Shown here piece by piece: positions 1,739 to 15,323 of a DNA stretch of 20,653 bases; position 1 is the stretch's first letter; every line of letters begins with the position of its first letter. The position numbers and the translations under genes were made by a program. This DNA is from a phage. The notes under the pieces are model-generated. The model saw nothing but the letters and a program-made list of their open reading frames with translations. It was not told where the DNA came from and made no database searches. The stretch lies in assembly GCA_024975835.1 (NCBI GenBank), contig GCA_024975835.1_4840.2; one strand, 5' to 3'.

Positions 1739-2425
1739 ATGAAACGTTTAATCCTCGGGGTTGTGCTGGCTGGTCTGGCATTACCCGCCGCTGCCAAGCT
1801 GAACTCCACAGGTGATAAACTGTGGTCCGACCTTTCCTATTGTGCTGGGTTCTCCCAGGCGGTTGCCATCGACAAGTCTGGTTCCATAGAGAACTTCGCT
1901 GAACTCTGGAACACAGGTAACGTCTCCACTGCTGTCGTCAATGCCGGAATTGAGTTCAACCGTTACAAACAGGGAGCCTATAACCTCAAGGGCTACCTCA
2001 ATGACGACGAATTTAACCGTGGAGGCATGGAGGCTGGCGATTTGATCATGACTGGGCGTATGGGCACCCAAGGCCGAATGACCGTAAGACAGTGCCGTTC
2101 GCTCCCTTCTCCAGCATTACAGAAGGGTGTGCAGGTTGGTCGCCGCCACCTGAACCTTATCAACGATGGCAACCAGTGCATCAAAGTATTCGAATACAGC
2201 GCTACGCAGACCTCTGATCGCGTCCTGAAGAAGGAATGGCGCACCCGCGCTCTTGGTCTCAGAGCCTGGCTGGTTGAGAACGATTATTACTTTGAAGACA
2301 GGGTTCAGAACGGTCTGAAAGACCTGGCCACGAATCTGAGCGTGAACCTTGATGATCCCCGCATGTCGCGCGAACTCCAGCAGACTCGTGTTGACTGCGA
2401 CAATATGATGAAGGAGAACGAGTGA
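1739..2425 (+). CDS. secreted protein with signal peptide (about 228 aa)
   Basis: ATG at 1739 inside track ORF 1574..2425, preceded by strong SD AAGGAG at 7 nt. N-terminus MKRLILGVVLAGLALPAAA-KL is signal-peptide-like. Confidence 0.65.
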   Translation: MKRLILGVVLAGLALPAAAKLNSTGDKLWSDLSYCAGFSQAVAIDKSGSIENFAELWNTGNVSTAVVNAGIEFNRYKQGAYNLKGYLNDDEFNRGGMEAGDLIMTGRMGTQGRMTVRQCRSLPSPALQKGVQVGRRHLNLINDGNQCIKVFEYSATQTSDRVLKKEWRTRALGLRAWLVENDYYFEDRVQNGLKDLATNLSVNLDDPRMSRELQQTRVDCDNMMKENE

Positions 2426-2751
2426 TGAAATGTAAAATCCTGCTCTTGTTGGTACTGATAGCCGGGTGTGTAAACGCCGCGCCACCGTCCAAACTGAACA
2501 CATGTGTGGCGTGGATGGAGACGTATCAGCAGTTCCACCCAGATGACAAAGATACATCTATCCTCCTGTCCGACTTCGAGGGAGAGCTGAAGCGCCTTGA
2601 TCTGTTCAGTGTTGATCAGATAGAGAATGCGCTGGATCTTCCCATGATGCTGACTGCGGCTGACAACAGTCCACAAACGAAGAAAGACCTGATGTATTGC
2701 CGGGGGATTGCCCAGGACTTTGTCGGATTTCAAAATAAAGTTTCGGGTTAA
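2425..2751 (+). CDS. putative lipoprotein (about 108 aa)
   Basis: MKCKILLLLVLIAGC carries a lipobox-like LIAG-C. AAGGAG lies 8 nt upstream of ATG 2425; the start overlaps the upstream stop (TGATG). Confidence 0.6.
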   Translation: MKCKILLLLVLIAGCVNAAPPSKLNTCVAWMETYQQFHPDDKDTSILLSDFEGELKRLDLFSVDQIENALDLPMMLTAADNSPQTKKDLMYCRGIAQDFVGFQNKVSG

Positions 2752-5401: not shown

Positions 5402-7120
5402 GTGACAGCATTCAACCAATATACTAAGGCGCTTGACGGCGTCGGACCAGTCAGCATAGACCGCATCAAGTCTCTTGCCACTGAGTTCTTCCCGTATGAC
5501 ACCGCCAACCCCGGCCAGATGGAATGCATCGTTGAAGCCATCGATGCCCTTGTGAATAAGAAATTCAAACACGTGATCATCGAGGCTCCGACTGGTGTAG
5601 GTAAATCCCTCATCGGCACTACCATCCATAACGTGCTTCGCCATTTGGTTCTTGAGCACAACCCGTATGGTCAGTTCCGCACGTCTATCACGACGCCGAC
5701 CAAAGGTTTACAGGATCAGTATGCAGCAGAGAAAGCCGTGGCGATAGACATCCTGAAGGGCAAGAAGAATTACCGTTGCCACATCAGTCCCGACCTATAC
5801 TACAACGCCATTCAGTGCCGTATGGCATGCCGTGATGGCCAGTGTAGTAAGAATCGTTGCCCATATGTTCAGGCGCGTCGACAGTGGACCGACGTCTCCT
5901 CCCTGCGCTGCACCAACGCCGCCATGATGGTGGAGATGTGCACGACGATCTGTATGAAGCCGGAAAACCGTGCCGATATGCTGATCCTTGACGAGTGTCA
6001 TAAAATGCCCTCTACGCTCCTAGAGCATACTATCATGGAATACAACATAAAGGCTGTGGAAGGGCTGCTTACGATCCCAGAGGGGGTGCCTATCGTGGAG
6101 ACCATCAAGGATATCATCATCCGCACAGAGAACTATGAATTGGGCAACCTGTATTCCCTGTCTGGTGAGATGCATGCGATATTTGATGAACTGCACGGCA
6201 AGGTTGAAGCCCTGTTGGAAACTCTTGAGGAACTGGTAGAGGACGAGCGCCTGACTGAAGCCCAGGTGATGAAGCTGTCTGATATTATTGATACTCTTCA
6301 CAACCTCAGCGACTACTGTGGTATCATGGGGCAGACCAACGCCAGCACTTTCATCGTACAGGAGAAGGACAAGGGTATGATTCAGTTCAAGCCTGTCATC
6401 GCCTCTGATGTATCCCAGTTCGGCCTGTTCCGCAAGGGTGACTACCACGTCCACATGTCGGCTACCATTTGTGGGATTGACTCGTACGCCCGGTCACTGG
6501 GTATCCGCGAGGGTGAGTACCACAAGATACAGATCGGCAACCCTATCCCGATTGAGAACCGGAAAGTCAACTACATGCCCATCATGAAGATGACAGCGAA
6601 CATGGGTGACTATGAGATGAAGAAGCTGGCCGAATACGTTGATGAAATCATCGCATTCCACCCTGGGCAGTCTGGTATCATTCACACAGTAAGTTATGAC
6701 CGCGCCCTGGCTATACAGAAGTTCAGTAAGTACCGGAATATGATTCACGTTCCTCGTACTCGTAAGGCTCTGATGGACATCATGGAACACGCGTTCAGGA
6801 CGAAGACGCCTTGTGTCATCGCCAGTCCGGCCATGGAAGAGGGGTATGACTTCAAAGGCGATTACAGTCGATTTCAGATCTTGATCAAGGTGCCATACGA
6901 TTACCTTGGTGATCCTCTGGTGGCCCACGTCAACAGTGTGGACCCATCGGCGTACTTCAGGATGGCGGTACTGCGTATCGTTCAGATGTGTGGGCGTTCG
7001 GTCAGGGGCGTGAATGACTGGGCTGCGACGTACATCCTTGATTCTTCTTTTGAATCACTGATGATGCGCAACCCAGAGTTCTTCCCCGCTTGGTTCACTG
7101 ATGCCGTGTTTGAGGTTTAG
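5402..7120 (+). CDS. SF2 DExH-box helicase with Cys-rich insert between motifs I and II (DinG/XPD-like architecture)
   Basis: GTG start with AGGAGG 6 nt upstream. Walker A EAPTGVGKS, motif II LILDECH, motif III SAT (HMSATICG), motif VI QMCGRSVRG. Five Cys within about 30 residues (RCH...QCRMACRDGQCSKNRCP) lie between motifs I and II, where XPD/DinG helicases carry their Fe-S domain. Confidence 0.8.
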   Translation: MTAFNQYTKALDGVGPVSIDRIKSLATEFFPYDTANPGQMECIVEAIDALVNKKFKHVIIEAPTGVGKSLIGTTIHNVLRHLVLEHNPYGQFRTSITTPTKGLQDQYAAEKAVAIDILKGKKNYRCHISPDLYYNAIQCRMACRDGQCSKNRCPYVQARRQWTDVSSLRCTNAAMMVEMCTTICMKPENRADMLILDECHKMPSTLLEHTIMEYNIKAVEGLLTIPEGVPIVETIKDIIIRTENYELGNLYSLSGEMHAIFDELHGKVEALLETLEELVEDERLTEAQVMKLSDIIDTLHNLSDYCGIMGQTNASTFIVQEKDKGMIQFKPVIASDVSQFGLFRKGDYHVHMSATICGIDSYARSLGIREGEYHKIQIGNPIPIENRKVNYMPIMKMTANMGDYEMKKLAEYVDEIIAFHPGQSGIIHTVSYDRALAIQKFSKYRNMIHVPRTRKALMDIMEHAFRTKTPCVIASPAMEEGYDFKGDYSRFQILIKVPYDYLGDPLVAHVNSVDPSAYFRMAVLRIVQMCGRSVRGVNDWAATYILDSSFESLMMRNPEFFPAWFTDAVFEV

Positions 7121-7884
7121 TAACCCGCAACGAAGGACAGATGGCACTTGACATTCGGTTCCAACGACGTCACAGAAACCGTCATATTGTCCGTATCTTG
7201 GCTGAAGTCAATGGTGGCGAGAGGTTTGGTCTGAATATGGTTGTAAACACTGTAGATCAGATCCTCGCCACGATACCCTACCTTCCCGTCGGTGTCTTGC
7301 CAATGACCCAGTGTCTCATCGTAGACATGTACTCTGAACTCGATCATATGGAAGAGTGCCTTGGGGATGTCCTTGAGCACGCTGGTGCCAACCACGGGAA
7401 TCTCTATGCTGGAATCATTGGAGTTCCCTTCATAGACCGAAGCCCATGCAAAGGTAGGATCACCCCCAGCAACAGGGGTTCGCTTCCAGTATTGGAATTC
7501 TGGGTTGCCTGAAGCGTTCTTCTGAAGTAGAATGACCTCACCACCTTTGAAGTTCGAAGTATCGATGTCGCCTCGCTGAAGTTCATCTGCTGGAGATCCA
7601 ATAAATTTCCAGCCTTCGCGATCCAATAAAGACTTATAATAGTCGGTGAACACGTTGCTGTCTTCTGCATCGTTGATGGCATCTTTGAGACCTTGGCCTG
7701 TCACCATCTCGTTGAGCTTCAACCACATGTTCTTGACAGCAGACGCTGCTGCGACTTGTCCAGCAGTCCCACCTGCAGCATAATCATAGATGATATCTTC
7801 TGACTTGATAGCATCATAGATAGAGAGGAGCAATTGCTCAATCTGCGGGGCGGTGAGACTGAAACGATATGCGCGGGGTGCCAT
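7117..7884 (-). CDS. hypothetical late protein (about 255 aa), only convincing minus-strand gene in the window
   Basis: Start assigned to ATG 7884 (MAPRAYRF...) within track ORF 7117..8043, because GAGGAA lies about 8 nt upstream and a TATAAATA box lies about 36 nt upstream on the minus strand. 3' end converges on, and overlaps, the helicase stop. No catalytic motif recognised. Confidence 0.6.
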   Translation of the reverse strand: MAPRAYRFSLTAPQIEQLLLSIYDAIKSEDIIYDYAAGGTAGQVAAASAVKNMWLKLNEMVTGQGLKDAINDAEDSNVFTDYYKSLLDREGWKFIGSPADELQRGDIDTSNFKGGEVILLQKNASGNPEFQYWKRTPVAGGDPTFAWASVYEGNSNDSSIEIPVVGTSVLKDIPKALFHMIEFRVHVYDETLGHWQDTDGKVGYRGEDLIYSVYNHIQTKPLATIDFSQDTDNMTVSVTSLEPNVKCHLSFVAGY

Positions 7885-7919
7885 AGTTTCATTCCTCTTT
7901 CTATAAAACCAGTTTGGGA

Positions 7920-7927
7920 TATTTATA
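7920..7927 (-). promoter_or_regulatory. T4-type late promoter box TATAAATA on the minus strand
   Basis: Plus-strand TATTTATA at 7920-7927 is the reverse complement of TATAAATA, positioned upstream of the minus-strand ATG at 7884. A gp55-like late sigma factor is encoded in this same window. Confidence 0.5.
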
Positions 7928-7929
7928 TC

Positions 7930-8457
7930 ATGATAGAAATTTATTCTGACGGGGGTTCTAACCCGAAGACCAACCAGGCCGCAGGTTGGGCATTTGTCAT
8001 CAGGCCAATAACGGGTATGCAATGGAAGGTGTTCTTCGGCCATCTACCTCCCCCGTCCACTAACAATATCGCCGAGTTGTTGGGCGTGACCAACGCATTG
8101 AAGCTGCTGTGGGCATTCTCAGGAAAGGGTGAGCGCAGAATACCAAAGGCAACAATTTGGTCTGACAGCCAATATGCCATCAAGAGTGTCACCGAATGGC
8201 GAACGAAGTGGGAGTATCAGGGTTTCCCAGACAAGAACGTTGAACTCATCAAAGATCTGTTCAGAATCTATGATCTCGTTTGTTCAATTTGTGATGTTGA
8301 ACTAAAATGGGTTAAGGGTCATGCGGGGCACGAAGGCAACGAACTTGCCGATGACTGGGCCACAGCAGCCAAAAACGACAGCAACTTCCTGATTGAGAAT
8401 GACAAGATCTCAGTGAAGAAGGTTGTTGGATCTTTTGATGAATTTATCGGTATCTGA
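7930..8457 (+). CDS. rnhA: ribonuclease H, type 1 (RnhA-like)
   Basis: Start ATG 7930 (MIEIYSDGG...) within track ORF 7834..8457. Catalytic signatures IYSDGG, NNIAEL, SDSQY and WVKGHAGHEGNELADDWA correspond to the D-E-D-H-D active-site pattern of E. coli RNase HI. Confidence 0.85.
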   Translation: MIEIYSDGGSNPKTNQAAGWAFVIRPITGMQWKVFFGHLPPPSTNNIAELLGVTNALKLLWAFSGKGERRIPKATIWSDSQYAIKSVTEWRTKWEYQGFPDKNVELIKDLFRIYDLVCSICDVELKWVKGHAGHEGNELADDWATAAKNDSNFLIENDKISVKKVVGSFDEFIGI

Positions 8458-8468
8458 GGGCTTTCATA

Positions 8469-9260
8469 ATGGGAATGAACTTCGTGGACAGAGGGGAGAA
8501 TGTCGTCAAATATTTCACGGACGAAGACAACGAGCGTGTCATCAGTATCCTTCGTGATTGGATCCCTGCTCGTAAGAAGGCTCTGGCTGAAGGCACCAGG
8601 CTTCCAAAGATCCCCAACTATGTTGCTCTACAGGTCCAGCGCATCATCACCAAGATGAGTACCCGCTACAACTATCGCGACTATCCCTTCCGTGAAGACA
8701 TGGTCTCTGAAGCAATAGTCAACATCCTGCGCTACCTCCACACCTTTGACGTCGAACACATTGGAAAGAAAGGGAAGATCAACTTCTTCTCTTGGGTGAC
8801 CATGTGTGCTGATCGCTCATTTGCTCGTAAACTGAACATCGAAGAAGAGCACACGTACATTAAATTGCGCTCATTTGAAGAGGCGGGTGGGTTCGCAGGC
8901 CTGGCAGACGATCCCGACTTCCAACAAGAGATCTTTGTTGATGCTACAGGAATTGGCATGGACTTCCGTGAGCGTATCGGTAACTTTGAGAACAAAAAGG
9001 ACGCTCAAAGACAGAAGGAGCGAGAGAAGGTGGAGGCAGCTCGTCTCGCAGAATCGAATAAAAAGATTGCGAAAGGCATACTTCAATACATGGCGCAGGC
9101 TAAGAATACGGTAACAGCGCAGGCCGAAGACAATTCAGATCAGGACTTTGGCAAAACCCAATTCAATCTGGAAGATGATATCTGTGCGATGGAACCAGAT
9201 TGGGAAGCCCTCAAACAAAGATTAGAAGAACGGGAGAAAAAGAATAATGGCGATTGCTAA
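8469..9260 (+). CDS. gp55-like late-transcription sigma factor with extended charged C-terminal tail
   Basis: Pattern RYNYRDY...VNILRYLHTFD...NFFSWVTMCADRSFARKL parallels T4 gp55 as I recall it (RFNFSGY...LHNFD...YITQACFNAFVQRI). Protein is about 80 aa longer than T4 gp55, with a Lys/Glu-rich C-terminal region. Confidence 0.75.
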   Translation: MGMNFVDRGENVVKYFTDEDNERVISILRDWIPARKKALAEGTRLPKIPNYVALQVQRIITKMSTRYNYRDYPFREDMVSEAIVNILRYLHTFDVEHIGKKGKINFFSWVTMCADRSFARKLNIEEEHTYIKLRSFEEAGGFAGLADDPDFQQEIFVDATGIGMDFRERIGNFENKKDAQRQKEREKVEAARLAESNKKIAKGILQYMAQAKNTVTAQAEDNSDQDFGKTQFNLEDDICAMEPDWEALKQRLEEREKKNNGDC

Positions 9261-10362
9261 AATCGGCGATCTGCATATCGGGAGCCGTAATGGTTCCCGA
9301 TACGTTCGCGACTTCATCAAGAACTATCTCATCAATTATTTCATCCCTGAACTTGTCGACTCTGATATCAAAGAGGTCTGGCAGTTCGGTGATACGTTTG
9401 ATGTCCGCAAATTCATGTACGGGCGTGACAAGGACTGGTTGAAAGATGAGCTGACTCCGGCGCTGAAAGCTGCTGGGATCAAGTGGAATGGTATTGTTGG
9501 TAACCACGACATCACCCTGGAAGAGTCTAACCGCATCAACTGGCCATCCTACCTGAACGAACTCGACCCAGATGTGTACTGCTATTATAGCGAACCGACC
9601 GAAGTGATGATCGAGGGTGTCAAGACTCTGCTCCTACCGTGGATCAACAAGGAGAACTATGATGCGTCTATTAAGGCGATACAAGATACAGACGCCGAGT
9701 ACTGTTTTGCGCATCTGGAGCTGGCAGGGTTCAAAATGTACCAGTCCTCTACTTGTGATCACGGTCAGATCGACGTTGCGTTGCTTTCCAAGTTTACCAG
9801 GGTCGACACGGGACATTTCCATACCCGTTCGATGGAAGGTAACATTCAGTATCTTGGGACTCCGTATCACCTGAACTGGGAAGACTACAAAGATGGCACC
9901 AACCGTGGCTTCTATGTGGACGACATGCGCGGTGGTGAGGTCTTTATCCCGAACGCCGAGAATCAGACGTTGTTCCGCTATGTGGAATATGATTACACCA
10001 AGTTGTCCTCAGACGATGAGGGTAACTGGATCAACCCGGAATGGCTGAACACAGGCTTGGGTATTGAAGGGCAAATCGTTAAGGTTATTGTACAGAATCG
10101 CGACAATGCTAAGCATTATGAAAAGTTCTGTGATGCCATGAAGCGCTGTAAGTGCATTGACTACAACTTCATCGACCGGACTATTACCGTAGCGGCTGAG
10201 AAGGTTGAGGTCACCGAAGAGATGGTGGCAACCGACGCAGTGGAAGTCCTAAAGAAGGATATCCGCGCCGGGAACAACATCCAGCGCCCTGAAAACGTCT
10301 GCAAGCTGGCAGAGCACTTCTACAACGCTGCCCAACAACGTCTGAATACACTGGATGCATAA
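9247..10362 (+). CDS. gp47-like Mre11/SbcD-family recombination nuclease (calcineurin-like phosphoesterase)
   Basis: Phosphoesterase motifs GDLHIG, GDTFD, GNHD and GHFH, with N-terminal similarity to T4 gp47. Overlaps the gp55-like gene by 14 nt. Confidence 0.85.
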   Translation: MAIAKIGDLHIGSRNGSRYVRDFIKNYLINYFIPELVDSDIKEVWQFGDTFDVRKFMYGRDKDWLKDELTPALKAAGIKWNGIVGNHDITLEESNRINWPSYLNELDPDVYCYYSEPTEVMIEGVKTLLLPWINKENYDASIKAIQDTDAEYCFAHLELAGFKMYQSSTCDHGQIDVALLSKFTRVDTGHFHTRSMEGNIQYLGTPYHLNWEDYKDGTNRGFYVDDMRGGEVFIPNAENQTLFRYVEYDYTKLSSDDEGNWINPEWLNTGLGIEGQIVKVIVQNRDNAKHYEKFCDAMKRCKCIDYNFIDRTITVAAEKVEVTEEMVATDAVEVLKKDIRAGNNIQRPENVCKLAEHFYNAAQQRLNTLDA

Positions 10363-12700
10363 CATGACTCAAAGTACAGATATCCTGGCCAAATTTGGCA
10401 ATCTTTTGAAGGAAGCTGACACCCCGGTAGAGGTGGAAGTCCCATTTGAAGTGCGTGATAACGTTACGCACAAACTAACTTTCCGCAAAGGTCGTGCCAA
10501 AAACTTCCGTTCCATCGGCAATCAGTTCATGGAGATTGATTATCAGCGCAACCCAGCCACCCTTGTCACGTCTGATGACAACGGCGCGGGTAAATCCACG
10601 ATGTTGGTATGGCTGCTGTTCTTCGTACTGTACAACACCACGTACAGTAAGAAGGAGAAGAAGGCAGGCCTGGTTAACTCACAAAGCCGCAAGGAATGTG
10701 TGGGTGAGGTAGAGTTTGCCTGTCGTGGTAGTGAATGGAAAGTTCGCCGGGGTATCAAGCCCGACTTTGTTGAAGTCTACCAGATGGTGGACGGTAAGTG
10801 GTTGAAGATCGATAACGAAGCAGCCAAAGCCGACATGAACAAGTACATCGTGAATCTCATCGGTGTAGACCAGAAGATGTTTGAGAACTCTCTGGTGCTG
10901 GGCAAAGAGAAGTTCATTCCGTTCACGGAGATGTACACAGCCGACCGCCGCGCCATGGTGGAGACTATCTGGGACTTGGGCTTCTTCAGCCTGATGAACG
11001 AAGATGTCAAGGCATCCATCAAGAAAGCGAACGAAAAGCTGGACGCGATCGCGAATGAATGTGCGTTGAAGGTTGTTGACCACACCAACAAGAAGACGCA
11101 GCTACAGCAGATAGAGCGGTCCAATGCCCTTATCCAACAGCAGTCGGCCGATATCCTTGTGCAGCAACAGGAAGCCCTGACTTCCCTAGACGCTGACATC
11201 GCCGCCCAGAATGAAGAGCGCACCCGCCTCACTGCGGTTGAGTTCGAAGCCGCCCAGGAAATGAAGATAGTAGAAAGCCGCCTGCATGATGAATCCATGG
11301 TGGAGATCGATGCTGTCAAGAAAGACTTTGATGCCAAGATCCAGGCGGTGAAGGATGCCGCTCAGGAAAAGGCCGATGATTATGAGCGTATCGAAGTGTC
11401 TATTGCGGAGCATGATCTTCAGGTCTTGCGTGACCGCGCCTTTACAGTGGCCGAACGCAAGAACACCCTGCTCACCGAGCGCAACACAAACCTGGACGCC
11501 CTGAACGCTGCTATCCAGCGCCGTCAGCAGGGTGAGAACTTCCGTATCAAGTTCCAGACCGAAATGGATGGACATCAGTCGGCCATCAAGCGCTTCCACG
11601 ACATGGGGACTTGCCCAACATGTACCCAACTGGTGTCAGACGATACCAAGGCGCGTATTGAAAGCGAGTACAATCCTCAGATCCAGGAACTGCAGTCGAA
11701 GTTAGATCAACTGGACAAAGTTACCGCCGATATCAATGTCCTGATCGATGATCACAAGGCTCAGGACGATAAGTTGGTTGCTGACATTGCTGTGTTGGAT
11801 GCTGAACTGGATGCAATGCGCAAGCAGGCCGACGAAATCGTTGACAACATCAAGCAGCTGCGCCGTGATATTCAAGGTTTTCATGATGCCGCCACGATTG
11901 AGTGTAATTCGCTGAACCGTGAATGCCAACAGAAGATCCTTGACATCCGTAAGGCACTGAACGTTCGTTTTGAAGACATCACTGCGTCACTACAACAAAC
12001 TCGAGAGAATGCCGTCAGCGGGATTAAAGCCGTCGATGATAAGATCGCCGAGCTGAAAGCCCGTCGTGCTCCTCTCGTGGCGTCTATTGCCGATCTGGAG
12101 CGTAAACTGGCTGTACAGCCAACACCTACCACCGACCTGGAGAACTCTATCGCTGCGTTGGAAGGTGAACTGGAGTCTCTGTATGAACTCCGTGAAGATG
12201 CAGATGAGGAACTCCAGGACTTACAGCACCTGCTGTTCTTCTTGAAAGATGACCAGACCAAGGCGCGTATCATCGCCCTGTACTTGCCATTCCTCAATAG
12301 CAAGATCAACGAGTATCTTGAAGCCCTCAACATGTTCTTGGACATCGTTGTTGACGATACCTTTGAGATCACCATGAGCGCAGCAGGCCGCAAGGGACAG
12401 AGCATCTTCTCCCTGTCTACTGGCCAACGCAGTCGCCTGAACCTGGCTGTGACATTAGCTCTGCGCGATGTGGCTAACCTCAAGGCGTCTGTACAATGTA
12501 ACCTGTTCGTGCTGGACGAGATCCTTGAGAACATGAGCGAGCGCGGGGTGCAGGAATCGGTTGAGATGTTGAAGCATAAGTTCGGCGGGAACAACCTGTT
12601 TGTTATTAGCCAGCGCGAACAGGAGTTCCAGGAATACTTCCAACACAACATTCGCTACGGCCTGCGAAACGGCCTGACTGAAGTTATCAAGAAGGATTGA
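10355..12700 (+). CDS. gp46-like Rad50/SbcC-family ATPase
   Basis: Walker A DDNGAGKSTM, long coiled-coil middle, ABC signature LSTGQRSRLNLA, Walker B LFVLDE. Start is ATG 10355 or 10364 adjoining the gp47 stop; there is an N-terminal extension of about 35 aa relative to my recollection of T4 gp46. Confidence 0.85.
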   Translation: MHNMTQSTDILAKFGNLLKEADTPVEVEVPFEVRDNVTHKLTFRKGRAKNFRSIGNQFMEIDYQRNPATLVTSDDNGAGKSTMLVWLLFFVLYNTTYSKKEKKAGLVNSQSRKECVGEVEFACRGSEWKVRRGIKPDFVEVYQMVDGKWLKIDNEAAKADMNKYIVNLIGVDQKMFENSLVLGKEKFIPFTEMYTADRRAMVETIWDLGFFSLMNEDVKASIKKANEKLDAIANECALKVVDHTNKKTQLQQIERSNALIQQQSADILVQQQEALTSLDADIAAQNEERTRLTAVEFEAAQEMKIVESRLHDESMVEIDAVKKDFDAKIQAVKDAAQEKADDYERIEVSIAEHDLQVLRDRAFTVAERKNTLLTERNTNLDALNAAIQRRQQGENFRIKFQTEMDGHQSAIKRFHDMGTCPTCTQLVSDDTKARIESEYNPQIQELQSKLDQLDKVTADINVLIDDHKAQDDKLVADIAVLDAELDAMRKQADEIVDNIKQLRRDIQGFHDAATIECNSLNRECQQKILDIRKALNVRFEDITASLQQTRENAVSGIKAVDDKIAELKARRAPLVASIADLERKLAVQPTPTTDLENSIAALEGELESLYELREDADEELQDLQHLLFFLKDDQTKARIIALYLPFLNSKINEYLEALNMFLDIVVDDTFEITMSAAGRKGQSIFSLSTGQRSRLNLAVTLALRDVANLKASVQCNLFVLDEILENMSERGVQESVEMLKHKFGGNNLFVISQREQEFQEYFQHNIRYGLRNGLTEVIKKD

Positions 12701-12702
12701 TC

Positions 12703-12867
12703 ATGAACTACGAACAAATTAAACTCGCAATCCTGGTCTTTGCATGCATCATTGACATCATTGCATTTTCTCGTGAAGTCGAAAGGAAAAACTACCTGAA
12801 AGCACTGGGGTATCTCGGGTTCTCTGTCTGGTTCTGTTATCTACTTGCAGGTCAAATCCTGAAATGA
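12703..12867 (+). CDS. small membrane protein with two predicted TM segments (54 aa); absent from the ORF track because it is under 60 aa
   Basis: ATG 12703 lies 2 nt after the gp46 stop and the stop overlaps the next ATG (ATGA). Hydrophobic stretches IKLAILVFACIIDIIAF and LGYLGFSVWFCYLLAG read from my own translation. Confidence 0.4.
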   Translation: MNYEQIKLAILVFACIIDIIAFSREVERKNYLKALGYLGFSVWFCYLLAGQILK

Positions 12868-13193
12868 AAGTCGTCCACTTCAAGAAGGAGCCATATGACG
12901 TCTACATTGGTCGGCCTGGTAAATGGGGGAACCCGTTTGAGGTCAAAGACCATGGACGAGGCGTCTGTATCGAACTGTTTGAGGACGACCTGTATGTGCG
13001 CCTGATTGAAGGGGATATCACTGAGGATGAACTCCTTGATCTTGACGGGAAGGTATTGGGGTGCTGGTGTAAGCCGCGCCCCTGTCACGGAGATGTTTAC
13101 GTCAAAGTCATTGGTCGTATTAAACTATTCCGCAAGCTGGGTAAATCCTTTACTGAACACCTGAGACAAACATATGTCAGAATCAAAAGATGA
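12864..13193 (+). CDS. conserved protein with GNPF and CWCxPxxCHG motifs (I believe the DUF4326 family)
   Basis: Motifs WGNPF and CWCKPRPCHGDV in a roughly 110-aa protein. Family assignment is from memory of the motif pair and is not database-verified. Confidence 0.55.
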   Translation: MKVVHFKKEPYDVYIGRPGKWGNPFEVKDHGRGVCIELFEDDLYVRLIEGDITEDELLDLDGKVLGCWCKPRPCHGDVYVKVIGRIKLFRKLGKSFTEHLRQTYVRIKR

Positions 13194-13458
13194 TATCCAA
13201 GACTCCTGTGACATTGCGGTTGAAATCTGGAACCGTCGGAACCCGCATTACCAGGTGACCGTCACGCCAAATCGCTACCTTGAGCAGGGCGGTTTGATTG
13301 TTGTTGATGCTGTACTTGCGTTCAACAAGTACACCGACATGCAAATCCTGGACGGCAACTTCACTGTCGCGACCAAGACGGCTTGGGATGACCCGATGGA
13401 GTTTGTCTATGGCTGGCTGGAATGCATCGAGGAATCCTACCACCTCATCTATGAATGA
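13174..13458 (+). CDS. hypothetical protein (94 aa)
   Basis: ORF overlapping the upstream gene end by 20 nt. No motifs recognised. Confidence 0.5.
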   Translation: MSESKDDIQDSCDIAVEIWNRRNPHYQVTVTPNRYLEQGGLIVVDAVLAFNKYTDMQILDGNFTVATKTAWDDPMEFVYGWLECIEESYHLIYE

Positions 13459-13463
13459 GGCTG

Positions 13464-13497
13464 AAGGGCACTAAATATCACGTGCCCTTTATCTTTT
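13464..13497 (+). terminator. hairpin plus T-rich tail, candidate intrinsic terminator
   Basis: AAGGGCAC-(10-nt loop)-GTGCCCTT followed by TATCTTTT, a few nt after the stop at 13458. Confidence 0.55.
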
Positions 13498-13555
13498 AAC
13501 ACCTGTCAGGAGGCTCAAGCGAGCTGCAAGTCGACAAAACATAAGGAACGCCATC

Positions 13556-14170
13556 ATGACGATGACAACGTTGAAGGCCATGGCCTTGTCCGTGACCTTT
13601 ACCATTGCCAGCGGGAATGTGCACGCTTCCCAAAGTACCACCCAATGTGATTATAATTTCTCCGAGCAACAACTCAATACACTGGCAACCGCCTATCACG
13701 TAGGCAAGACACAAGATCTTGGCTACACTCTGGCCGCCATATCTTGGCGAGAGAGCCGCGCTGGTGAAGATGTAGTGTCAATGCGATACGGCCTCAAGGC
13801 GGCCAACATGGGAGCCTTTCAGAACAAGGTGAAGACAGTTGGTGATCGCGAAGGTTGTAAGAATCGCAAGTGCTATGCCAATGTCGCCATAAAGTTGCTG
13901 ACCGACCAAGAATATGCCGCGCAAGCCGCCCTCGATGAGATGCAGTTCTGGCTGACCTATCACAATCAGAATATCCGCAAATCCCTCTCCTCTTACAATG
14001 CTGGCTTCGCCCGTAATCCCGCATCGAACGCGTATGCTGCCGACGTCGTGAAGAAAGCTAAATATCTTCAGAAATGTGTGTCCTTCGAAGGCCGGACCAT
14101 CTCCGAGGTAGATCCTCAGGTGATCGCCATGAACAAGCACACAATAGAGAAACTGAAGAGGACAAGATAA
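13556..14170 (+). CDS. SLT-domain lytic transglycosylase-like protein with N-terminal signal or SAR-like segment
   Basis: Order of motifs SWRES...GAFQ...SYNAG mirrors family-1 lytic transglycosylases (ES...GLMQ...AYNAG). N-terminus LKAMALSVTFTIASGNVHA is hydrophobic and Ala/Ser/Thr/Gly-rich. AAGGAA lies 8 nt upstream. Confidence 0.6.
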   Translation: MTMTTLKAMALSVTFTIASGNVHASQSTTQCDYNFSEQQLNTLATAYHVGKTQDLGYTLAAISWRESRAGEDVVSMRYGLKAANMGAFQNKVKTVGDREGCKNRKCYANVAIKLLTDQEYAAQAALDEMQFWLTYHNQNIRKSLSSYNAGFARNPASNAYAADVVKKAKYLQKCVSFEGRTISEVDPQVIAMNKHTIEKLKRTR

Positions 14171-14808
14171 TGAACATCACTCCATCTCAGGCCGGATATG
14201 AACATATCTTGGTCTTCATTGCTCTACAGGGTGCGAAGGAAGGCATCATCGTATCCGAGTACTCAGGCACGGTTCGCCTTGCTGATTATGTCGCGCCAGA
14301 GGCGTTCATTAAGAAGTGTATTGACGCATGGTGCCTCTATGCCCTCAGCACATACCCTGCTCCTCCTGAGGGTGAGCTGTTGTTTACTGTGCCGACTCCG
14401 GCTGTTGGCGATACAGACGCGATCTTTGCCGATATGCTGACCAAGGGGTATCTGGTGTATGACCTCACCCACGATGTCTACTCCTTTACTTCGCTGAACA
14501 CCGTGTTTGGATTCACCATCACATCTGAAGCCAACATCCCTGACTGGGGTATCTTGGCTTGGGGTGTTGACGGTCTGGGTGCAACCTACGCATCGTCTGA
14601 CGTCGGTGCGGTTCTGATTGATGAGGGTGTCACCATGGAGCAGTACCTTGCCCAGTTCCCTCAGCACAATATCACAGGCAGCGACATCATTTTGGTCCAG
14701 CCTGGCGCTATCGCTCTCCCCCGTTTGGTGGATGGATGGAATCCTCGGCTGAAGGACATCATCGCAGGTATTCGGTCCCACATTCCGGTTGTGAATCCGA
14801 CGCCGTAA
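14170..14808 (+). CDS. hypothetical protein (about 212 aa)
   Basis: ATG 14170 within track ORF 14074..14808, overlapping the upstream stop by 1 nt (TAATG). No motifs recognised. Confidence 0.6.
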   Translation: MNITPSQAGYEHILVFIALQGAKEGIIVSEYSGTVRLADYVAPEAFIKKCIDAWCLYALSTYPAPPEGELLFTVPTPAVGDTDAIFADMLTKGYLVYDLTHDVYSFTSLNTVFGFTITSEANIPDWGILAWGVDGLGATYASSDVGAVLIDEGVTMEQYLAQFPQHNITGSDIILVQPGAIALPRLVDGWNPRLKDIIAGIRSHIPVVNPTP

Positions 14809-14822
14809 AAATAATTCAATAA

Positions 14823-14849
14823 AAGGGGCTTTTGCCCCTTTACTTCTTC
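14823..14849 (+). terminator. rho-independent terminator
   Basis: AAGGGGC-TTTT-GCCCCTT followed by TACTTCTTC, 15 nt after the stop at 14808. Confidence 0.6.
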
Positions 14850-14915
14850 AATATCCTTCCCTATACTTCATTCCATAAGCAGTACGACACCAACTTGAAA
14901 AGCAGGAACTATATC

Positions 14916-15251
14916 ATGACACAACTCAAGAACTTCACCGCCGATGACATGTTTGCCTTCCAGGGTGCTGAGCACTTTGCTGACGGCTCCGTACCTCGCA
15001 TCTACTACTTCTCCGACGAAGAAATGGAAGATTTCTTCGCCCTGATGGAAAAGGACTACGAATCGGGCGACTTCGTTTATATCATCCATCACGCTGAAGG
15101 ACTGACATTGGGTTGGACGGCCAACAATGAACCAGAAGAAGTAAACTTCCCTGAAGGTATCATGTCAGAGCGCGTCGAATATCTACTGGAAGCCCTGGAC
15201 CCCCACACCCTCCCGCTCTGGGCGATGTCTGTAGCCCAAGTTCAAAAATAA
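14916..15251 (+). CDS. hypothetical acidic protein (about 111 aa)
   Basis: ATG 14916 within track ORF 14832..15251, in AGGAACTATATC-ATG context. Asp/Glu-rich. Confidence 0.55.
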   Translation: MTQLKNFTADDMFAFQGAEHFADGSVPRIYYFSDEEMEDFFALMEKDYESGDFVYIIHHAEGLTLGWTANNEPEEVNFPEGIMSERVEYLLEALDPHTLPLWAMSVAQVQK

Positions 15252-15255
15252 GACA

Positions 15256-15299
15256 AGGGGCTTCGGCTCCCTTCTGGTTTCGCTAATTAAGGGAAACCA
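15256..15299 (+). promoter_or_regulatory. tandem intergenic hairpins, the first with a UUCG-type tetraloop; terminator or RNA-stability element
   Basis: AGGGGC-TTCG-GCTCCCT (one G.U), then TGGTTTC-(11-nt loop)-GAAACCA, between the stop at 15251 and the start at 15324. Confidence 0.4.
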
Positions 15300-15323
15300 A
15301 CTCATTCCATCAGGAGATATAAA

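Follow-up and report, generated by a model that had tools for sequence, protein, structure and literature searches.

Results and Discussion

Two overlapping genes at 13556-14808

The window analysed here, a stretch of 20,653 nucleotides of phage DNA (NCBI GenBank assembly GCA_024975835.1, contig GCA_024975835.1_4840.2), belongs to a Vi1-like myovirus (Ackermannviridae, Aglimvirinae), and the subject of this study is the gene that begins at position 13556 and encodes a small protein resembling lytic transglycosylases of the SLT type. The E. coli phages RPN242 and A221 share 96% nucleotide identity with the window over the region 12600-15400, and matches to this region occur in 273 phage records of the Agtrevirus, Limestonevirus, Kuttervirus and Klebsiella Vi1-like groups. 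An earlier interpretation made without database searches (hereafter the sequence-only reading) had assigned the whole span 13556-14808 to one SLT-like gene. Its start at 13556 holds, but the SLT-like open reading frame (ORF) stops at 14170 and the rest of the span is a second gene in a different frame, joined to the first by an ATGA start/stop overlap. The features of the two genes are as follows.

13556-14170 (+): gene 1, coding sequence of the Vs.1-family SLT-like protein, 204 amino acids (aa), ATG at 13556, TGA stop at 14168-14170
13556-13627 (+): predicted cleavable Sec signal peptide, residues 1-24 (rule-based prediction from the sequence)
13751-13756 (+): E66-S67, motif I, with the Glu66 codon at 13751-13753 (gene 1 sequence)
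13811-13822 (+): G86-A-F-Q89, motif II (gene 1 sequence)
13991-14005 (+): S146-Y-N-A-G150, motif III (gene 1 sequence)
14167-14808 (+): gene 2, coding sequence of a DUF7270 / phrog_3923 protein, 213 aa, ATG at 14167

It is well supported that gene 1 encodes a GH23 protein of the Vs.1 family, with a family-1-type lytic-transglycosylase fold, an intact catalytic glutamate and a cleavable Sec signal. We infer its actual export and cleavage, its transglycosylase chemistry, its timing in the window phage and its physiological role.

Gene 1 belongs to the Vs.1 family

The gene 1 protein matches phrog_600 ("Vs.1 conserved hypothetical protein") at E = 1.8e-59, far better than chance would give, with residues 7-179 aligned to positions 4-176 of the 178 in the profile, and Vs.1 of phage T4 (P13311) carries the annotation phrog=600. 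A direct BLASTP comparison with T4 Vs.1 gives E = 4e-18 and 29% identity over 171 residues, and tblastn with the gene 1 protein reaches phages T4, T2 and T6 at E ~1e-7. Gene 1 is thus placed in the Vs.1 family both by its full-length match to the profile and to T4 Vs.1 itself and by its layout, in which one domain of ~150 aa comes after an N-terminal export signal. Homologues were found by tblastn in 2128 phage records, including T4-like Straboviridae, Felix O1-like and Vi1-like phages and phages of Vibrio and Aeromonas, and an exhaustive profile search returned 1018 clusters (50% identity) at E <= 0.001, 133 of them at E <= 1e-30. No NCBIfam match was obtained for either gene 1 or gene 2.

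One branch of the family, with proteins of 224 aa, is encoded on bacterial chromosomes (Nitrospirota-like metagenome-assembled genomes; loci L017 3600-4274 and L018 1844-2518), where its genes sit between exbB-exbD and rplI-dnaB-alr. Since family members also reside on bacterial chromosomes, they form a clade of small secreted GH23 enzymes common to bacteria and phages rather than one specific to phages, and their bacterial neighbours suggest a generic murein-turnover activity.

Gene 1 and its SLT similarity are already known in the literature and databases, and the finding is therefore an ordinary one. Nolan et al. 2006 had already noted that vs.1 resembles SLT marginally, citing PSI-BLAST results in the 2003 T4 genome review, and suggested "some role in cell lysis" for the gene (PMC1524935); this comparative-genomics remark was all that our literature search turned up on Vs.1 function. 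The deposited A221 protein is 99.5% identical to that of gene 1, and orthologues are labelled "Vs.1" in Ag3 (where the protein is N-terminally truncated), "putative RegB" in LIMEstone1, ZQ1 and many others, "MltF-like" in pSal-SNUABM-02 and "Transglycosylase SLT domain-containing protein" in UniRef. The "RegB" or "RegB endoribonuclease" label appears to be a propagated error, because regB adjoins vs.1 in T4. In addition, the Ag3, ZQ1 and A221 annotations call the gene from an internal Met (130-162 aa), by which the signal peptide is lost, and the A221 record carries a spurious 38-aa minus-strand ORF annotated over the gene 1 leader.

An intact GH23 active site

The sequence-only reading had proposed a family-1 lytic transglycosylase from the motif order ES...GAFQ...SYNAG, and E66-S67, G86-A-F-Q89 and S146-Y-N-A-G150 are indeed present in that order. 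Their conservation was counted in a 64-sequence alignment and a 269-sequence hidden Markov model alignment of relatives. Glu66 is found in 266 of 267 aligned relatives and Ser or Thr at position 67 in all 267; G86 is kept in 264 of 269 sequences, with Q (166) or H (91) at position 89; and in motif III Y147 is present in 268/268 sequences, N148 in 248 and G150 in 268. Tyr160, present in 267, would by its sequence conservation correspond to the C-terminal Tyr of the GH23 enzymes (motif IV in Slt70). The protein thus shows the Glu-Ser of GH23 motif I, motifs II and III, and a conserved C-terminal Tyr. When relatives were searched individually, Pfam SLT was recognised at E <= 0.01 in 51 of the 64 (best 1.3e-7), and no other family matched.

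An AlphaFold2 (AF2) model of the gene 1 protein (mean predicted local distance difference test score, pLDDT, 89.6; predicted template modelling score, pTM, 0.82) has a domain with pLDDT > 90 and the lysozyme-like GH23 fold. Searches of the PDB by sequence add little: a single-protein search gave no match at E <= 10, and a profile search gave marginal matches only, of which EtgA (E = 0.054) is the best, together with g-lysozyme (0.086).

Goose-type lysozymes have an Asp at the position following motif II. In the 269-sequence alignment no acidic residue is conserved there, the positions after Q89 being N/I/A and Y/L/N/K, and this pattern favours single-acid lytic-transglycosylase chemistry over hydrolysis of the goose-lysozyme type. 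Cys101 and Cys106 covary, both occurring in 37 sequences, one in 3 and neither in 229; because the pair is gained and lost together, it probably forms a disulfide in the exported protein.

The N-terminus resembles a cleavable signal peptide

The N-terminus of gene 1, MTMTTLKAMALSVTFTIASGNVHA, is rich in Ala, Ser, Thr and Gly (8 of the 13 residues at positions 8-20), as the sequence-only reading had observed. From this composition it had suggested a domain of the signal-anchor-release (SAR) kind, in which a weakly hydrophobic, Gly/Ala/Ser/Thr-rich transmembrane segment of ~18-22 residues remains uncleaved for want of an efficient signal peptidase I site. The segment is better described as a signal peptide with the n-region MTMTTLK, the h-region AMALSVTFTIASG and the c-region NVHA, and with a predicted cut after Ala24 (VHA/SQ, the slash marking the site). 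Its hydrophobic core comprises only 13 residues (8-20), preceded by Lys7 and followed by the polar stretch NVHASQSTTQ, and its maximal 19-residue Kyte-Doolittle (KD) mean is 1.12, compared with 2.07-2.11 for the ~20-residue cores of the P1 Lyz and P21 R SAR domains (reference sequences confirmed from primer sequences in PMC8385771). With an A-x-A-type cleavage site predicted just behind so short a core, the SAR-like interpretation of the N-terminus was not borne out.

Comparison with relatives leads to the same conclusion. The predicted site reads [V/A/G]-x-[A/S] followed by Ser in 27 of 27 Vi1-like cluster representatives (VHA, VHS, VYA, VNA, ANA, ATA, AAA or GLA, with Ser always next), and constrained positions -3 and -1 around a free position -2 are the signature of a signal peptidase I site. 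Of 233 single-domain family members, 212 carry a hydrophobic segment near the N-terminus (median length 13 aa; 5th-95th percentile 8.5-17); within these 212, K or R lies ahead of it in 199, a -3/-1 site follows in 198, and the core reaches at least 18 residues in only 10. In all, some 90% of family members, T4 Vs.1 included, have cleavable signal peptides of the classical kind. T4 Vs.1 (MRKALLAGLLAISMMAHS/SEH), the Felix O1-like protein (MKKLILGLCLMFTAHLSYA/VD) and the protein of Cronobacter phage S13 have textbook signal peptides at the homologous position, and residues 1-24 of the AF2 model of gene 1 have pLDDT < 50. SAR domains and cleavable signal peptides have been told apart by whether a signal peptidase I site is likely, a discriminator validated for T4 RI (PMC8385771); applied to gene 1, it points the same way, toward a cleavable signal.

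Separate lysis enzymes in the same genome type

In A221, a gene at 73374-74168, ~1 kb past the primase-distal genes, encodes a 264-aa protein with a PG_binding_1 domain and an N-acetylmuramidase domain (PF11860, formerly DUF3380, E = 7e-59) that matches the PHROG "endolysin" at E = 3e-133. Its counterpart in CECAV_050 bears the label "endolysin" and that in LIMEstone1 (ORF070) the label "putative endolysin"; the LIMEstone1 annotators predicted a late promoter before ORF070. By synteny the gene is expected ~3 kb past the window's right end, ~9 kb downstream of gene 1; the separate endolysin is established in relatives with the same gene order (96% nucleotide identity), not in the window itself. 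A221, CECAV_050 and LIMEstone1 also encode a baseplate protein of the gp5-like kind that combines OB and CHAP domains, a virion lysin that was found in LIMEstone1 virions. Gene 1 is therefore not the only or dedicated late murein hydrolase of this genome type.

Within the window, a 109-aa lipoprotein gene at 2422-2751 (+), 11 kb upstream of gene 1, encodes MMKCKILLLLVLIAGC (lipobox LIAGC) and matches the PHROG "Rz-like spanin" at E = 9e-55. It overlaps by 4 nt the gene at 1739-2425 (+) for a 228-aa protein with an N-terminal signal or anchor, whose LIMEstone1 orthologue ORF100 has a predicted coiled coil, and the two are a candidate two-component spanin. The sequence-only reading was right that gene 1 lies outside any lysis cluster (its neighbours are DUF4326, phrog_4165 and DUF7270) and that no holin, endolysin or spanin gene adjoins it. 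This position weighs little, however, because the lysis genes are scattered in this genome type, as they are in T4. The search it had called for, covering a canonical endolysin, holin and spanins, recovered the first in relatives and a spanin-like pair in the window, and identified no holin.

The sequence-only reading had also pointed to a 54-aa two-helix protein encoded 0.7 kb upstream, and that ORF is present:

12703-12867 (+): 54-aa ORF with two transmembrane domains (Ag3 annotation), coupled in translation with both gp46 and the DUF4326 (NrdA.1-like) gene

Neither a holin nor a lysin was reported in the 2011 Ag3 paper, which counted gene 117, the one encoding this protein, as one of its holin candidates (PMC3121705), and PMC9902359 contains nothing on Vi1-like lysis genes. 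The 54-aa gene is absent from Limestonevirus (Dickeya) genomes and other small ORFs take its place in distant relatives, so that it is unlikely to encode the holin of the Vi1-like group.

In two other lineages the Vs.1-family gene lies near spanin genes. In Cronobacter phage S13 (L007 2498-3680) the Rz/Rz1-like spanins follow it directly, and in Escherichia phage momo, which is Felix O1-like (L005 2417-4676), it is ~1.2 kb upstream of i- and o-spanins and labelled "putative lysin". The arrangement may be a coincidence stemming from the pseT neighbourhood, or the gene may be repeatedly linked to outer-membrane lysis genes.

The transcription unit, its leader and its timing

Gene 1 is co-transcribed and translationally coupled with gene 2 through the ATGA overlap, and the flanks of the pair contain the following elements.

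13459-13498 (+): hairpin GAAGGGCAC-loop-GTGCCCTTTATCTTTT (13459-13494) with a T-rich tail, fold -15.6 kcal/mol, z = -3.8
13499-13555 (+): non-coding leader, 57 nt, with Shine-Dalgarno AAGGA at 13543-13547 (sequence conservation)
14822-14849 (+): hairpin AAAGGGGC-TTTT-GCCCCTTT (14822-14841) with a T-rich tail, fold -14.2 kcal/mol, z = -3.7
14839-14867 (+): sigma-70-like promoter for the next gene, TTTACT-17-TATACT, found by scan and overlapping the 14822-14849 hairpin

The first hairpin, as good as which none of 200 shuffles folded, is probably the intrinsic terminator of the upstream unit that runs from gp47 and gp46 to the gene at 13174-13458, and so the left border of the two-gene unit; a consensus terminator scan missed it because its loop is 10 nt long. 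The second is probably a (bidirectional) terminator closing the unit; the scan picked it up on the minus strand, together with a promoter-like site, and the LIMEstone1 record has both a terminator and a "middle promoter" marked at the place equivalent to 14822-14867. Both hairpins are conserved in Det7 (Kuttervirus) and XDRKpn-1 (Klebsiella Vi1-like).

Over the leader together with the first eight codons (13499-13590), nucleotide identity to a Kuttervirus and a Klebsiella Vi1-like phage is 90-91%, as against 78% over the coding sequence. In L015, a relative with just 59% protein identity, the segment is almost invariant; in another relative, L016, it is absent. A structured RNA was considered and set aside: the leader shows no covariation, an ordinary folding energy (minimum free energy z = +0.28) and no Rfam match. 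A promoter class was likewise rejected, since neither the window nor the A221 genome has a second copy of the motif. The segment could plausibly act as an operator or translational control site specific to gene 1.

No late promoter of the T4 type (TATAAATA) was found near gene 1 in the window. In T4 itself, Vs.1 is classed as "early RNA / middle protein" and the e and gp5 proteins as "late" (PMC9697503, supplementary files 4 and 6); the text of the PhageExpressionAtlas gives no expression data for a Vi1-like phage.

Gene 2 matches Pfam DUF7270 over its full length (E = 7e-111) as well as phrog_3923, and its product is a cytoplasmic protein unrelated to the gene 1 enzyme, with no signal peptide and a winged-helix-like fold. 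Its LIMEstone1 orthologue ORF085 (22.75 kDa, 4 peptides) was confirmed as a virion protein by mass spectrometry (MS), as were products of the genes that follow, and in L015 the coupling to gene 1 is broken. A role as immunity or inhibitor partner of the enzyme was rejected on these grounds, namely the missing signal peptide, the fold, the virion location in LIMEstone1 and the broken coupling.

A periplasmic murein-remodelling enzyme as the preferred interpretation

Taking these observations together, we consider it probable, at roughly 0.7, that gene 1 encodes a Sec-exported, processed and soluble periplasmic lytic transglycosylase, the Vi1-like orthologue of Vs.1, with an accessory, holin-independent role in remodelling or loosening murein. 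The preprotein would be exported by SecYEG and cleaved by signal peptidase I after Ala24, freeing into the periplasm a soluble domain of ~20 kDa (residues 25-204) that would be stabilised by at least the Cys101-Cys106 disulfide. There Glu66, as the single catalytic acid aided by Ser67, GAFQ, SYNAG and Tyr160, would cut the MurNAc-GlcNAc bonds of the host murein, most likely with 1,6-anhydroMurNAc as product. Such an enzyme would meet murein without a holin and act within the infected cell, ahead of lysis or until it occurs. Because the endolysin and the virion lysin are both encoded separately, the gene 1 enzyme would be neither, and we therefore read it as accessory. The sequence-only reading had offered a periplasmic murein-remodelling enzyme as its second option, and our interpretation comes close to it.

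Several points weigh against this interpretation. The gene 1 protein itself scores 20.3 bits against Pfam SLT (PF01464, E = 4e-4), 1 bit under the gathering cut-off of 21.3, so that the motif reading needed independent support, and Foldseek comparison with the PDB gave only E-values above 0.001 (E >= 0.03). The h-region is weakly hydrophobic (11-residue KD mean 1.85, against ~2.5 for OmpA and PhoA), and the LIMEstone1 annotators, using SignalP, recorded signal peptides on ORF099 and ORF100 and none on the gene 1 orthologue ORF086. An active muralytic enzyme made in the periplasm before lysis needs some restraint, and none emerged from this analysis. As regards timing, Vi1-like phages may differ from T4. 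LIMEstone1 annotates a "late promoter" upstream of the gene 1 orthologue, although this is weak: the site, TATGAATG, was predicted solely from similarity to the T4 consensus, has 2 mismatches and lies upstream of a terminator hairpin. Gene 1 is also coupled to a virion-protein gene and heads a block of such genes, and since ORF085 and the genes following it encode virion proteins in LIMEstone1, this arrangement hints at late expression in Vi1-like phages. Finally, the literature search brought up no enzymatic or genetic data for any member of the Vs.1 family.

Alternative roles

A broader form of the preferred interpretation, which we advance as speculation and regard as rather unlikely, would make the Vs.1 enzymes agents of a conserved, holin-independent editing of murein before lysis in large virulent myoviruses (T4-, Vi1- and Felix O1-like), with the segment 13499-13590 as a transcriptional or translational operator in the Vi1-like phages. 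The transglycosylase would be dosed into the periplasm well ahead of lysis, where it could open the sacculus for trans-envelope complexes (spanins, antiholin-holin) or tune lysis timing or lysis inhibition, and the near-invariant leader segment would restrain enzyme output in Vi1-like phages.

It is also unlikely, in our judgement, that gene 1 encodes a Sec-exported signal-peptide endolysin, possibly a redundant lysis effector, that stays inactive until the membrane potential breaks down through holin action; it would be comparable to Lys44 of Oenococcus phage fOg44. The predicted cleavable signal peptide combined with an intact muralytic active site would suit such a role, as would the spanin genes near the S13 and momo homologues, a possible late expression of gene 1 with a virion protein in Vi1-like phages and the involvement in lysis suggested by Nolan et al. 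2006 (PMC1524935). Yet every lineage examined has a dedicated endolysin as well (e in T4; in Vi1-like phages, the PF11860 muramidase), the middle protein class to which T4 Vs.1 belongs precedes the e protein, and spanin adjacency is seen in two lineages only. To our knowledge, moreover, no control by the proton motive force has been described for Gram-negative periplasmic lytic transglycosylases, which also counts against this alternative.

We find it very doubtful that the enzyme serves superinfection exclusion or competition by altering murein or hindering incoming tails or DNA. The proposal draws on the periplasmic location, the pre-late expression in T4, the wide conservation in virulent myoviruses of a gene that looks dispensable, and the fact that known T4 exclusion proteins act in the envelope (Spackle is discussed in PMC7650644). 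However, exclusion has no mechanistic precedent for a lytic transglycosylase, and murein cutting should aid incoming tails rather than hinder them. PADLOC gave no match (Cas7d at E = 0.006 being noise), and the family members on bacterial chromosomes beside exbBD, rplI and dnaB suggest generic murein turnover instead.

The SAR endolysin of the sequence-only reading, an inactive enzyme tethered by an uncleaved signal anchor and released for lysis when a (pin)holin depolarises the membrane, is highly improbable. Besides the small-residue-rich N-terminus, it could appeal to the absence of charge from residues 8-31, a 24-residue run as long as those of P1 Lyz and P21 R, and to the two-transmembrane holin candidate of the Ag3 authors 0.7 kb upstream. 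But the part of this run beyond the 13-residue core is polar (N, H, Q, S, T), the -3/-1 site is kept throughout the Vi1-like clusters whereas SAR domains typically lack a likely cleavage site (PMC8385771), and the T4, Felix O1-like and S13 homologues carry short, strongly hydrophobic classical signal peptides. Linkage to a (pin)holin is not seen either: between gene 1 and the nearest membrane protein, that of 12703-12867, lie two genes and a terminator, and this protein is missing from Limestonevirus, which keeps the SLT-like gene. The sequence-only reading had named a complete separate lysis cassette elsewhere, with gene 1 dispensable for lysis and plating, as what would speak against it, and relatives largely bear this out with the PF11860 endolysin and the OB+CHAP tail lysin.

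A virion-associated enzyme that helps the tail across the wall, as in the DNA-entry role once suggested for this gene, can hardly be credited: the coupled DUF7270 protein and several following gene products are found in LIMEstone1 virions, but the 39 MS-confirmed virion proteins there include the neighbouring ORF085 and not ORF086, packaging in the cytoplasm cannot be reconciled with a secretion signal, and the baseplate already has its own gp5-like OB+CHAP lysin.

Genomic neighbourhood

Scans with PHROG profiles place gene 1 inside a T4-type replication and recombination block, whose recognised members in the window are:

5402-7120: helicase
7834-8457: RNase H
8469-9260: gp55 late sigma factor
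9247-10362: gp47
10355-12700: gp46
19278-20414: primase

Downstream of the two-gene unit, the block at 15324-19113 (+) contains orthologues of LIMEstone1 ORF078, 080, 081 and 082, MS-confirmed "unknown structural proteins". The C-terminal part of its 980-aa protein (15324-18266) matches the PHROG "internal head protein" at E = 4e-10, and a perfect TATAAATA at 18308-18315 lies just 5' of the ORF at 18341. A lone minus-strand gene at 7117-8043, between the helicase and RNase H genes, has orthologues annotated as virion structural proteins, one of them MS-confirmed (LIMEstone1 ORF093), and a perfect copy of the same T4-type late promoter motif is found just upstream of it on the minus strand at 7920-7927.

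Implications

The "RegB" labels and truncated signal peptides in GenBank hide the predicted secreted, muralytic nature of the gene 1 product, which should not be confused with the endolysin when Vi1-like phages are mined for enzybiotics. The interest that remains is why T4-, Vi1- and Felix O1-like phages all retain a Sec-exported lytic transglycosylase, made in T4 before the lysis enzymes.

Comparison with known systems

With the family-1 (GH23) enzymes Slt70, Slt, MltF, MltC, MltE and EtgA, the gene 1 protein shares the catalytic Glu-Ser, an AYNxG-type motif and the predicted periplasmic location. It differs in being a minimal single domain without superhelical, lipoprotein or LysM modules, in having G-A-F-Q (Q or H in relatives) instead of G-L-M-Q as motif II, and in the marginal level of its sequence similarity (Pfam SLT, Foldseek). 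The canonical Vi1-like endolysin is likewise a murein glycosidase of the same genome type, but its catalytic family is a different one, it carries a cell-wall-binding domain and no signal peptide is present.

The SAR endolysins P1 Lyz and P21 R resemble gene 1 in the holin-free, Sec-dependent export of a muralytic enzyme and in an N-terminus rich in small residues, whereas gene 1 has the shorter h-region (13 as opposed to ~20 aa), a conserved signal peptidase I site, no adjacent pinholin and a separate endolysin. A parallel for the N-terminus is the T4 antiholin RI, a periplasmic protein whose weakly hydrophobic N-terminus invited the same reading and which has a -3/-1 site after residue 24; RI was once thought to have a SAR domain until processing of its signal peptide was shown experimentally (PMC8385771). 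RI is not an enzyme, however, and has no homology to gene 1.

The known counterpart in T4 is Vs.1, which belongs to the same PHROG and size class, has an N-terminal signal peptide and carries the ES, G-x-F-Q, S-Y-N-x-G and Y motifs; both genes lie among early/middle-type genes of nucleotide metabolism and recombination, away from the lysis genes. The Vi1-like proteins are distinguished by the CxxxxC pair (C101/C106), Cys31 and Cys174, by a basic C-terminal extension of ~30 residues, and by lacking the ~15-residue insertion that T4 has after helix 1, and the neighbours are regB and vs in T4 as opposed to DUF4326 and DUF7270 in the window.

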